Part shown: positions 8,223 through 30,816 of the stretch, piece by piece | Numbering within the stretch: position 1 is the first letter of the stretch | Layout of the letters: every line of letters begins with the position of its first letter | From: a virus | Lineage: Duplodnaviria > Caudoviricetes | DNA: 39,088 nucleotides | Virus record (IMG/VR): IMGVR_UViG_3300030376_002948 | Span: 1 to 39,088 of that record | Direction: 5' to 3' (one strand) | The notes under the pieces: generated by a model | Told to the model about the DNA's origin: nothing | The model's database searches: none | The model's input: the letters and a program-made list of their open reading frames with translations, nothing else | Program-made: the position numbers and the translations under genes

Positions 8223-9272
8223 ATGAGTAACGTGCAAGATAATACCCCACCTGAAAGCCCTAAGCCTCTATCAGTATCAGAGGCAGGGGATGCCATTTTG
8301 TCCCGATGGGAGGACACTCCAGAAGAGGAGTTATCCGAAGTTGAACAAGAGGCGACACCCGAAGACAATCAAGAAGAGACTGAGATTGACCCGGGTGATG
8401 ATAGTGACGACAATCTAGACGAAGAAATCGTTGAAGATGATACAGACCCTGATGAAAATGACGAGGTCGAAGTCGAAGAGAATGATGACGAAGAAGATGA
8501 AGAAGCTGAAGTAATTACTGATGACGAACATCTCGTTGAGGTTCTCGTAGACGGAGAAGTCAAGAAGGCATCTGTTAAAGATTTAAAACGGCTTTATGGT
8601 CAAGAGGCATCACTAACTAAAAAGTCTCAGCAAACTGCAAAACAACGTAAAGAAGCTGATGAAGCACTTCAGAAGACTTCAGTTGTCATGCAGAGGCTAA
8701 TCGAGAAGGCACAAGAAGCCTACAAACCTTACGAGGACATCGACATGCTAGTAGCAAGTCAAGAGATGACCCGGGAGGATTTCGCTTCACTTCGTAAAGA
8801 AAGTAAACTTGCGAAGGACAACCTCGACTTTCTCACTCAAGAAGCTGAACAGTTCTACGGTGAAATTCAGGCACAGCATCAAGCCAATCTGAATGAAGCT
8901 GCGACAAATGCAGTAAAAGTATTGCGTGAGGATATACCTGACTGGTCGAATATTATGTATGACGAAATACGTCAGTATTCTGTTAGTGAGGGTTTACCCG
9001 AGCAAATGGTTAACACAATTGTTGACCCGGTTGTTATCAAGCTACTTAATAAAGCTCGTCTATATGACCAAGGCAAGAAAGTGGCTACAACAAAGAAAGC
9101 GAAAACAGTGACTAGAACTAAATCACTAAAAGCACGAAAGACACCTGAGAAGTCAGCTGATGTCGCCAAGCAAAAGCGAATAAAAGCTACTAAAGACAAT
9201 CTAAGAGCGTCAAAACGTGGAAACCACCTCGATGATATAGCCGATGCACTGATGGCACGTTGGGAGCAATAA
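8223..9272 (+). CDS. Capsid scaffolding protein
   Basis: Very acidic N-terminus, VLVDGEVKK...LKRLY...LTKKSQ motif, coiled coil, basic C-terminus; directly upstream of the capsid gene. Confidence 0.85.
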   Translation: MSNVQDNTPPESPKPLSVSEAGDAILSRWEDTPEEELSEVEQEATPEDNQEETEIDPGDDSDDNLDEEIVEDDTDPDENDEVEVEENDDEEDEEAEVITDDEHLVEVLVDGEVKKASVKDLKRLYGQEASLTKKSQQTAKQRKEADEALQKTSVVMQRLIEKAQEAYKPYEDIDMLVASQEMTREDFASLRKESKLAKDNLDFLTQEAEQFYGEIQAQHQANLNEAATNAVKVLREDIPDWSNIMYDEIRQYSVSEGLPEQMVNTIVDPVVIKLLNKARLYDQGKKVATTKKAKTVTRTKSLKARKTPEKSADVAKQKRIKATKDNLRASKRGNHLDDIADALMARWEQ

Positions 9273-9310: not shown

Positions 9311-10706
9311 ATGACAACTTATACTACATATGACCAAGTTGGATTGGCTGAAGATGTAAGTGATATTATCACTGACATTGGTAATGGTGTCCTTGTCGGG
9401 TAACCGACATGACAAACTGTGTGAATTCAGGGAACATCTCTAGCAGACAATCCTGAGCGAAGCCCCGGTATCTCCGGGGAACGTGCAACGACTATCCCAT
9501 TGGGAGTAGAGCCAAGCGGCTCGAAGCGCACAGCCCCTCATGACGAGGGTGAAGATATAGTCTCGTCCTGTAGGCGACTACAGGCTGGCAAATGATTGCC
9601 GGGCAGAGCCTAGCGAACTCTGTTGAAGAAACGCACACCAACCGACACTCCATTCAGCACTATGATTGGTTCAGAAACCTGTTCCGCTCGTGTGTTTGAA
9701 TTCCTTGAAGATAGCCTTGCCGCCGCCGCAGATAACAAAGCGGTTGAGGGTGCAGACCCAAGCATGGCTACTCTTTCTAACGCAACGTCCAGAACGAACA
9801 ACACCCAAATTCTGACTAAAGCGTTTCAAGTGTCCAAAACTGCTGACGCCGTTAAGACTTACGGCAGGGCAAAAGAAACTGCGTACCAATTAGGTAAAGC
9901 ACTTAAAGAAATTAAGCGTGACCTAGAACGTGCGTACATCGGTATAGACAACGCCGCTGTCACAGGTTCAAGTTCTGTGGCAAGAGAAATGGCAAGCGTC
10001 TCGACCCAAATATCGACAACCGTCGATGCCGGGTCAAATGCCACCGATGCCCTTACCGAAGCCAAACTACTTGAGCTGGGTGAAGACTGTTATGGTAACG
10101 GTTCTGACCCAAGCGTACTCATGATTAAACCGGGCGATGCTCAAATCGTTGCTGGTTTTGCCGCCTCATCAGGTCGCAATCGTGAGTTTGCTCAAACTCG
10201 TGAGCTGGTCAATGTGATTGACCTGTACGTTAACTAAACAAATCGGCATAGCGTACATTAAACCCTGTGAATTCAGGGGAAGCCTAAGTCCTTATGGATA
10301 TGGTAATCCTGAGCCAAGCCTTGCTTATGCAAGGAAGGTGCAACGACTATCCTTTTATGGAGTACACCCCGAGTGGGGTGGAAGCGCAGGGGTCTGCAAT
10401 AGCAGACATGATATAGTCTCATCTCATATCGAAAGTATGAGCGTTTTTTAACGACTTTGGTCTAACGAACCAAGGTAAAGATTTTGTTCGCCGTACGGAG
10501 AGTACAGCATTGTACTCAATCGTCACCAGCTTACGACACACGCATTTTTGATTGACCCAGCCATGTTTAAGGCAGTTGTGTTGCGTCCGTTTACACGCAC
10601 ACTTCTCGCTCAAACAGGTGACAGTGACAAACACTTTATCAGCTACGAAGGTTCAGTGAAACACATGAACTTTTCTGACAGTGGAATGATTACTGGTCTG
10701 TCATAA
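9311..10706 (+). CDS. Major capsid protein (SU10/DUF5309-like), spliced: join(9311..9378,9634..10230,10487..10706), 294 aa
   Basis: Exons of 68+597+220=885 nt give an open frame: MTTYTTYDQVGLAEDVSDIITDI-TPTDTPFSTMIG...LKEIKRDLE...VIDLYV-SPYGEYSIVLNRHQ...LRPF...GDSDK...GMITGLS*. AAGG SD upstream; position after scaffold. Confidence 0.92.
9379..9633 (+). mobile_element. Group I intron 1 (255 nt, no ORF, IA-like with P7.1/P7.2)
   Basis: P1: exon gacaU pairs with Gugtc (U-G at the 5' splice site). P3 ctgtgtg 9417-23/cgcacag 9527-33; P gaattcagggaa; Q aatcctgagc; R gtgcaacgactat; S aagatatagtc; P7 gactat 9490-95/atagtc 9557-62; terminal G 9633. Confidence 0.93.
10231..10486 (+). mobile_element. 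Group I intron 2 (256 nt, no ORF, IA-like with P7.1/P7.2)
   Basis: P1: exon tgtacgU pairs with Gcgtaca. P3 ccctgtg 10263-69/cgcaggg 10385-91; gaattcagggga; aatcctgagc; gtgcaacgactat; P7 gactat 10345-50/atagtc 10413-18; terminal G 10486. Confidence 0.93.
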
Positions 10707-17615: not shown

Positions 17616-17692
17616 GTAACCGTAGCTCAACTGGATAGAGCGACGGACTTCTAATCCGTAGGTTGCAGGTTCAAGTCCTGCCGGGGTCACCA
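17616..17692 (+). other. attP: tRNA-Arg(TCT)-derived sequence with mismatched acceptor stem
   Basis: D arm gctc/gagc, anticodon stem acgga/tccgt with TCT at 17650-52, T arm gcagg-ttcaagt-cctgc, CCA end. Acceptor 5' GTAACCG vs 3' CGGGGTC has 3 mismatches. Ends 49 nt before the integrase start. Confidence 0.8.
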
Positions 17693-30203: not shown

Positions 30204-30746
30204 TTACGCCGCCTCGAATTTGTTTGCTTGTGTGAAAACGTCAGCAAATTCATTCAGCAATTTGACTTGGTTTTCTTCGTCAGCACATATGAACGCTCTA
30301 GTAAGATGCTCTGCAAACTCGCCGTGGACACCACGCAAAAGCTGTTGAGTAGATATTGCATTCGGGCGCAAGGCATCTAGTCTGGCTTGCTCCAACCTTG
30401 CCTCTTTACGCTGATTTCTATTTTCATTATCAAGATGCATTTGTGCTAGCTTAAAATCACTTGGCTCAAAGCCAACAGCCTGTATAGGTATGTTCAATTC
30501 TAGTAACAATCGAACTGAAACCCAAACAAACGCACCAGTTTCATTTGGCTTGAACTCGAACATGTCTCTGCCGAACTCTGCCATTAAAGTATCTAGCTTT
30601 TGCTCAAACTTTTTTTGGCTAGTGCCTTTTGGTTTTACACAATCAAAAAATACAGTGTCTATGACTTGGTCGCCAAGCAAGTCGCTTTCGCAACTGTTGT
30701 TTAATAGTTTTAATAAATCGTTACTCATAATGTCTCTCTTTCTCAT
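30204..30746 (-). CDS. Hypothetical early protein (start may be 30728)
   Basis: 180-aa ORF in the minus-strand operon; C-terminal FAEHLTRAFICADEENQVKLLNEF segment. Confidence 0.75.
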   Translation of the reverse strand: MRKRDIMSNDLLKLLNNSCESDLLGDQVIDTVFFDCVKPKGTSQKKFEQKLDTLMAEFGRDMFEFKPNETGAFVWVSVRLLLELNIPIQAVGFEPSDFKLAQMHLDNENRNQRKEARLEQARLDALRPNAISTQQLLRGVHGEFAEHLTRAFICADEENQVKLLNEFADVFTQANKFEAA

Positions 30747-30753
30747 TAAATTC

Positions 30754-30816
30754 TGACCTGTCTCGTCAGCAATGCGAGGTCACTCACACTGGACACCCTC
30801 TCGGGTGTTTCGACTA
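30754..30816 (-). ncRNA. Type II hammerhead ribozyme; predicted cleavage between 30792 and 30791
   Basis: Minus strand reads GUC-GAAA-CACCC(GAGA)GGGUG-UC^CAGUGUGAG(UGAC)CUCGCAUUG-CUGACGA-GAC-AGGUCA: intact core, stems I-III, and a loop I/3' tail pseudoknot. Confidence 0.92.

Follow-up and report, generated by a model that had tools for sequence, protein, structure and literature searches.

What are two short inserts without open reading frames doing in the major capsid gene of a marine phage, and how did they get there? We addressed this question for the virus record IMGVR_UViG_3300030376_002948, which formed our window at its whole length of 39,088 bases and is rated complete by CheckV. An earlier sequence-only reading of this DNA had interpreted the inserts as self-splicing group I introns that might make capsid output depend on GTP, Mg2+ or RNA folding. 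Our analysis agrees with that reading on what the inserts are and differs from it on what they do: we consider it probable that the two introns, which are ORF-less and predicted to be self-splicing, are mobile passengers that were moved between capsid alleles by DNA recombination, and not a regulatory switch.

Results

A marine phage with an SU10-type head module

Profile scans identified an SU10-type portal, scaffold, capsid and adaptor in the genome, which also encodes a T7-like RNA polymerase, a primase-helicase, a DNA polymerase, an integrase beside a tRNA gene and a repressor-like gene. The SU10-type head module, the integrase and the repressor share the genome with a T7-like RNA polymerase and replication genes. 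The tRNA gene (17616-17689, + strand, 58.4 bits), whose anticodon reads UCU, lies directly before the integrase gene and may mark an attachment site. On the - strand, a type II hammerhead ribozyme match (30752-30815, 43.3 bits with a cut-off of 37) stops just ahead of the start of a leftward 180-aa ORF of unknown function (30204-30746).

The runs that contain the virus are labelled as marine, seawater, aquatic or viral metagenomes. No cultured close relative was found among 50,697 phage records, the best identities being 40% for capsid exon 2, 29% for the portal and 32% for the RNA polymerase. Homologues at 51% and 39% identity sit in Ferrovibrionaceae and Thalassobaculaceae chromosomes; closer homologues lie on short contigs in metagenome bins, which are not reliable as host evidence.

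Three exons join into one capsid reading frame

The capsid exons and the gene upstream of them are arranged as follows.

8223..9272, + strand: head scaffolding protein gene, upstream neighbour of the capsid gene (PHROG 9013 and 3927, E about 1e-21)
9311..9378, + strand: capsid exon 1 (68 nt, 22 codons plus 2 nt), with the 3' end GACAU
9634..10230, + strand: capsid exon 2 (597 nt; Pfam SU10_MCP, E 5.8e-47; PDB 7z45 major head protein, E 2.3e-21)
10487..10706, + strand: capsid exon 3 with the stop codon (220 nt; Pfam SU10_MCP positions 221-291, E 3.9e-15)

The sequence-only reading had claimed that the genome holds no full capsid ORF and that the exons join into a 294-aa frame, and both statements stood up. 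Joined, the three exons give 294 codons and a stop codon, without an internal stop, and when the registers were slid by up to 6 nt, only the one listed here combined a 5' exon ending in U with an insert ending in G, at both inserts. The proposed kinship with SU10-type capsids was likewise recovered, exon 2 covering positions 22-220 and exon 3 positions 221-291 of the 292-position SU10_MCP model and exon 2 also matching 7z45; together with the portal-scaffold-capsid gene order, the profile match identifies the product as an SU10-type major capsid protein (PF17236). The joined gene is the only capsid match among the 45 window proteins scanned.

The spliced product is also colinear with uninterrupted homologues. 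Among the 120 homologues listed, 86 are 290-298 aa long, and 67 of those 86 align to it contiguously and gap-free. At junction 2 the commonest homologue residues are those of the window (51/86), while at junction 1 23/86 homologues are identical to the window and 25/86 show one T/S difference. Full-length capsid protein would require removal of both introns, in agreement with the earlier claim. The truncated 204-aa capsid that annotation pipelines were expected to report also exists: gene callers read exon 2 as a 204-aa ORF from TTG 9623, and this call is present in the protein database (P0001). Because both introns are in phase 2, skipping of exon 2 would stay in frame and leave a 95-aa product.

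A block at CDS 360-480 (window about 9936-10016) is ~62% identical to close alleles that are otherwise 92-100% identical, and judging from this diverged block the capsid gene is a recombination mosaic.

Both inserts are group I introns

The features of the two inserts are listed below.

9379..9633, + strand: ORF-less group I intron 1 (255 nt), after CDS base 68 (Rfam, 81.5 bits)
9374-9378 with 9387-9391, + strand: P1 of intron 1 (U9378·G9387), from the local fold
9417-9423/9527-9533, + strand: P3 of intron 1
9427-9431/9452-9456, + strand: P4 of intron 1
9490-9494/9558-9562, + strand: P7 of intron 1
Elsewhere in intron 1, + strand: P2, P6, P7.1, P7.2, P8, P9, P9.1 and P9.2; terminal G9633
9401..9403, + strand: in-frame stop in the P2 loop of intron 1; the predicted product of unspliced RNA is a 30-aa peptide with the tail VLVG
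10231..10486, + strand: ORF-less group I intron 2 (256 nt), after CDS base 665 (Rfam, 79.1 bits)
10224-10230 with 10251-10257, + strand: P1 of intron 2 (U10230·G10251), from the local fold
10244-10247 with 10490-10493, + strand: predicted P10 of intron 2, by inspection, with matching changes in three lineages of the alignment
Elsewhere in intron 2, + strand: no P2; core as in intron 1; terminal G10486
10235..10237, + strand: in-frame stop in the P1 loop of intron 2; a retained intron 2 would give a 223-aa truncated capsid ending YVN

The covariance model RF00028 matches the 39,088-base genome at two places only, 9369-9584 (81.5 bits) and 10201-10441 (79.1 bits), both above the gathering score of 50, and the Rfam scan found no aptamer-like extra domain or other match beside the introns. 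Local folds, which are short and beat shuffles by a modest margin only (z -1.3 to -2.2), place a U·G P1 at both 5' sites and yield P9, P9.1 and P9.2, whereas P2 forms in intron 1 alone. P1 of intron 2 is misplaced in Rfam's own alignment, and the helix drawn by the sequence-only reading is the correct one.

In an alignment of 24 introns, 95.9% of the core cells pair and 28 of the 45 pairs have changed on both sides; none of 500 shuffles reaches these values, and slid controls pair at 26-50%. P3, P4, P6 and P7 are 100% paired in the 24 sequences, each with compensatory changes, and P7.1 and P7.2, which lie between P7 and P3, covary at every pair. P8 aligned poorly in this set (57% paired), and one of five covariation measures, that of further pair types, was not above shuffles (209/500). 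We assigned the introns to class IA, as IA2 or IA3, because P7.1 and P7.2 are present.

Taken together, the scores, the U·G pair in P1, the terminal G, the covarying core and the restored reading frame confirm, at the level of sequence, that both inserts are group I introns, for which splicing is predicted. The alignment and folds thus bear out the splice pair, core, P7 and terminal G that had been described for each insert, the early stops lie at the positions given for them, and the longest stop-free frames (56 aa in intron 1 and 72 aa in intron 2) agree with the description of the introns as ORF-less. Among public sequences, introns of T4-like, T7-like, Bacillus and staphylococcal phages match best. 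Both introns also lie within an assembly made independently in a separate study, and DNA contigs from other studies comprise the two-intron form, a form that lacks intron 1 and an additional intron site at 9884.

Intron number and position vary among related capsid genes

Among the best 80 of the 507 IMG/VR loci found, 27 carry at least one intron insert, at CDS sites 56, 152, 665 or 673. For each of the 32 inserts in these loci, a U/G register is among those with the highest protein score; in 20 loci scanned, the Rfam cut-off was passed by 22/22 mapped inserts and by one partial insert in L023, and L020, cut by a contig end, gave no Rfam match. The rarity of capsid-gene introns that the sequence-only reading had implied is not upheld by this frequency, nor by the introns published for crAss-like phages (see below). 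The intron-less alleles that it had proposed as a comparison are common: 49 of 74 complete alleles, the window being one of the 74, have no mapped intron, including L065, whose alignment begins at residue 8 and which could conceal an intron.

The pooled loci contain 79 distinct introns at 14 called positions, and their length (236-320 nt) leaves no room for a nuclease. For tail and tree counts we kept 74 introns at ten sites within the 882-nt capsid gene and dropped five low-scoring junction calls (sites 143, 157, 325 and 668, and one at 75). Near-conspecific alleles have one intron (L001 and L002, site 665), two (window, sites 68 and 665) or three (L231, sites 68, 319 and 665), and the range among relatives is 0 to 4, the capsid genes of L084 and L252 having four. 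On a 61-allele capsid tree, which rests on a gene that itself recombines (the diverged block at CDS 360-480), the 8 carriers at site 56 need 8 changes, the 13 at site 665 need 8 and the 3 at site 673 need 3.

By insertion phase, the 79 mapped introns divide into 2 in phase 0, 22 in phase 1 and 55 in phase 2. Intron cores just ahead of the first aligned capsid residues of L249 (612-834) and L209 (2719-2942) suggest further sites in the first few capsid codons.

Introns have probably moved with short flanks between alleles

At site 665, introns that are 93-95% alike occur in genes that are 70% alike, and their 24-nt flanks are 92-96% alike. Across nine pairs of a carrier and an intron-less sister, 43 of 108 bases (40%) within 6 nt of this site differ, compared with 6.8% elsewhere. 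For exon 1 we took as reference L001, the closest allele that is intron-less at site 68. The last 26 nt of the window's exon 1 have 1 mismatch to L230, a distant carrier of the same intron, and 7 to L001; the first 42 nt have 15 mismatches to L230 and 6 to L001. Near-identical introns in genes only ~70% alike, with swapped flanking bases, argue for DNA-level transfer of the intron together with short flanks, with the qualifications that flank sharing overstates co-transfer, since P1 and P10 pairing partly force the flank sequence, and that flank tracts alone do not separate intron gain from loss.

Relationships between sites may record movement within the gene as well. Intron 1 (site 68) and the site-56 introns have a common guide and a common GACAU target, 12 nt apart, and the site-68 introns group with three site-56 introns (SH-aLRT 97), in a tree that is a quick search on 230 columns and for which core recombination could also yield this grouping. 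In the same tree the L254 introns (sites 75 and 259) are sisters and the site-673 introns nest among the site-56 introns. In another capsid family, comparison of L147 with L149 and L158 places two related introns a few codons apart near the end of the phrog_1357 capsid gene (around 1450-1500), possibly a second short-range site jump.

Our scans revealed no driver of this spread. The window introns (255 and 256 nt) contain no homing endonuclease, and no member of the homing-endonuclease families appeared among the 45 window proteins scanned, except for the gene of T7 endonuclease I, at its customary place among the replication genes. No free-standing endonuclease adjoins the capsid gene among its window neighbours. 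In 83 related loci, the gene clusters up to 3 kb from the capsid gene showed no apparent endonuclease and no extra gene that tracked with intron presence, the recurring clusters being the window's structural neighbours. Nuclease-bearing versions of the introns were absent from the 31 loci of a site-665 pattern scan, all of which have short introns. The corresponding site-56 scan, which could not detect a nuclease placed within the P1 loop, gave matches that were largely due to chance; those in capsid genes were all short.

Related introns in virion genes of a motif sample mostly lack nucleases

A core motif built from these introns has an estimated ~1000 matches in IMG/VR, from which 124 loci were returned, 80 of them with flanks, reducing to 73 distinct loci. 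By PHROG and profile matches, the host genes are 39 capsid genes (six families), 3 tail sheath genes, 28 replication, transcription, nucleotide or ATPase genes and 3 unassigned genes, with four ATPase loci placed by near identity to L111 and the host genes of L118 and L160 assigned by eye. A nuclease ORF is present in 2/42 structural-gene loci as against 24/28 replication-type loci, the match in L107 being weak (Fisher p 1.6e-12, a value inflated by non-independence among the loci and by the bias of the motif towards capsid-type introns). The two structural-gene loci are L125 (1691-2167, endonuclease VII) and L160 (1925-2653, LAGLIDADG). This distribution, drawn from a biased sample, suggests that virion genes are a second large niche of phage introns, in which the same lineage mostly occurs without nucleases. 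Neither this wider pattern nor a survey of ORF-less capsid-gene introns came to light in the mostly non-subscription literature searched; the list of known split phage genes that accompanies PMC11878797 may include capsid cases.

Read-through of retained introns

When retained, all 74 family introns stop the reading frame within 45 nt, compared with 62/74 and 39/74 for the other two frames. The resulting tails end in AA in 17 of the 74, at six of the ten sites (152, 179, 259, 319, 347 and 673; for example in L074, L325, L254, L091, L084 and L030), and in 0/74 for each other frame. Such tails also occur in other capsid families (L087, L099, L117, L121, L125 and L133) and in none of 27 replication-type loci. 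An ssrA-like ending in AA is a signal for degradation by ClpXP. Such a tail is absent from both window introns, whose unspliced products end VLVG and YVN. A published report of natural degradation tails on intron read-through was not found in the mostly non-subscription literature searched.

Discussion

We propose that both introns would leave the capsid mRNA by established group I chemistry, in which free guanosine would attack at the U·G pair of P1 and the freed 5' exon would then attack after the terminal G, while the early stops within the introns would halt ribosomes on unspliced RNA. During co-infection by related phages, an intron may move together with exon sequence at its flanks, from a few bases up to about 25. 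New sites would arise rarely, likely where a short exon word matches the intron guide, and intron 1 at site 68 probably derives from the site-56 lineage, which has the same GACAU target 12 nt upstream. Spread might be driven by plain recombination with drift, or by a nuclease supplied from elsewhere.

The last possibility leads to collaborative homing in trans, in which a free-standing or borrowed endonuclease cuts intron-less alleles and an ORF-less intron spreads by interrupting the cut site. The short converted tracts that flank site 665 on either side, like the 5' tract at site 68, resemble co-conversion, the S-PM2 psbA intron with F-CphI provides a precedent (PMC5931967, PMC3984707), and two capsid-gene loci of other families, L125 and L160, do carry nucleases. 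However, we judge this account unlikely, given that no extra gene tracks with the introns within 3 kb in the 83 loci, that the 45 window proteins include no homing-endonuclease family beyond T7 endonuclease I, that 31/31 site-665 pattern-scan loci have short introns, and that ten or more sites would demand many nucleases. Many sites in one gene would be explained, and a nuclease made unnecessary, if excised introns reverse-spliced into the capsid mRNA, likely the most abundant late transcript, and were fixed by reverse transcription and recombination. The ten sites in an 882-nt gene, the target word and guide shared by sites 56 and 68, the sister introns of L254, the nesting of site-673 introns among those of site 56 and the dominance of capsid genes in the core-motif sample are all in line with such RNA-based spread. 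Yet reverse splicing brings no exon bases while the flanks of carriers differ from those of their sisters, so that allele-to-allele spread is left unexplained; in addition, no reverse transcriptase occurs among the window proteins scanned, and PMC3984707, which discusses both collaborative homing and reverse splicing, presents the pathway as proposed and not as directly shown. We therefore hold RNA-based spread to be doubtful as a general account, and favour reverse splicing, as a best guess, solely for the origin of new sites.

The sequence-only reading had raised the possibility that double splicing ties capsid output to GTP, Mg2+ or RNA folding, which as a regulatory device would benefit the phage; a GTP-sensing splicing switch has already been proposed as a hypothesis (PMC11878797, Discussion). 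The full-length protein does need both splices, near-conspecific contigs from several studies retain intron 2, and for the S-PM2 psbA intron splicing is reported to depend on conditions (PMC5931967). We nevertheless regard regulation as quite improbable because the introns are polymorphic among relatives: 49/74 alleles have no mapped intron, number and position vary even within near-conspecific phages, and presence at a given site is scattered over the capsid tree. With 0 to 4 introns among relatives, and no aptamer-like domain or other Rfam match beside the introns, the suggested dependence on GTP or Mg2+ finds no support. That the gene is dead or the inserts an assembly artefact is hardly credible, considering that this is the only capsid match among 45 proteins of a complete genome, that the exons are intact and the intron cores keep compensatory changes, and that the same inserts recur in independent assemblies. 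Transfer of mobile passengers between alleles by DNA recombination is the reading that we carry forward.

Several known systems resemble this locus in part. The introns of Twort orf142 are ORF-less. This tail-tube gene shows exon skipping (PMC11878797) and carries three similar group I introns (PMC3073962, where it is printed as orf182), and thus, like the window, has several group I introns in one virion-structure gene, exon 2 skipping being in frame here as well. Intron 2 also matches staphylococcal phage DNA at ~70%, in an unannotated gap just after a tail sheath and a short structural gene. Unlike in Twort, the introns of the window, for which splicing is predicted, lie in the major capsid gene of a marine phage that is podovirus-like, and their number is polymorphic among near-conspecifics. 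Capsid genes of crAss-like phages hold group I introns, one Zeta genome having the gene split into five fragments; those introns were found through encoded endonuclease domains, which 3/4 inserts encode (PMC7886860). The capsid gene is split in both groups, whereas here we find 79 introns of 236-320 nt, in another capsid family and habitat. In phage C72C1 (GenBank OQ984150; L226, 8530-9731), which has the same capsid family, the gene is split near codon 110-115 by one related 251-nt intron, the best blastn match to intron 2; in the record the head protein is annotated as two fragments, and the intron is missing from the annotation.

In core sequence, the window introns resemble the IA2-type introns of SPO1, Bastille, beta22 and T7-like phages, and they have P7.1, P7.2, P9.1 and P9.2; they are candidate members of IA2, a subgroup described as heterogeneous (PMC11878797) and as containing more than half of viral group I introns (PMC11835236). 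The IA2-type introns of those phages sit in DNA polymerase, thymidylate synthase, terminase and RNA polymerase genes and, in such replication and packaging genes, often carry HNH or endonuclease VII ORFs, whereas the window introns are ORF-less and lie in a capsid gene. The S-PM2 psbA intron (PMC5931967) is likewise ORF-less, has early stops and is widespread in marine phages, but has the free-standing F-CphI, and no adjacent nuclease gene was found at the window capsid gene. Short introns are also abundant in Jug phages, for which 2513 introns with a mean of about 206 nt are reported, with splicing support for 37/76 tested (PMC12880540).

Both the capsid location and the presence of multiple introns in a virion gene have precedents, and the value of our observations lies in the family-level pattern and in the question of nuclease-free spread. 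Most split phage genes are core DNA genes, and a 2025 paper asks why phage introns colonise mainly genes of core DNA metabolism (PMC11878797). More speculatively, we put forward as a tentative idea that capsid genes are a main, largely unannotated home of a nuclease-free group I lineage that would reach new sites when its introns reverse-splice into the late mRNA of highest abundance and would then pass between alleles by recombination, that many of these introns tag their unspliced products for destruction, and that intron 1 is a natural record of such a jump. Capsid genes serve as taxonomic markers, and split ones are mis-annotated as fragments, as in P0001 here and C72C1 in GenBank. For the question of nuclease-free spread, this capsid family provides at least ten sites, alleles matched for intron presence and absence, and small, easily assayed ribozymes; if the proposal is true, intron 1, which lies 12 nt from the site of the site-56 family at an identical target word, would allow RNA-based transposition of group I introns to be tested directly.
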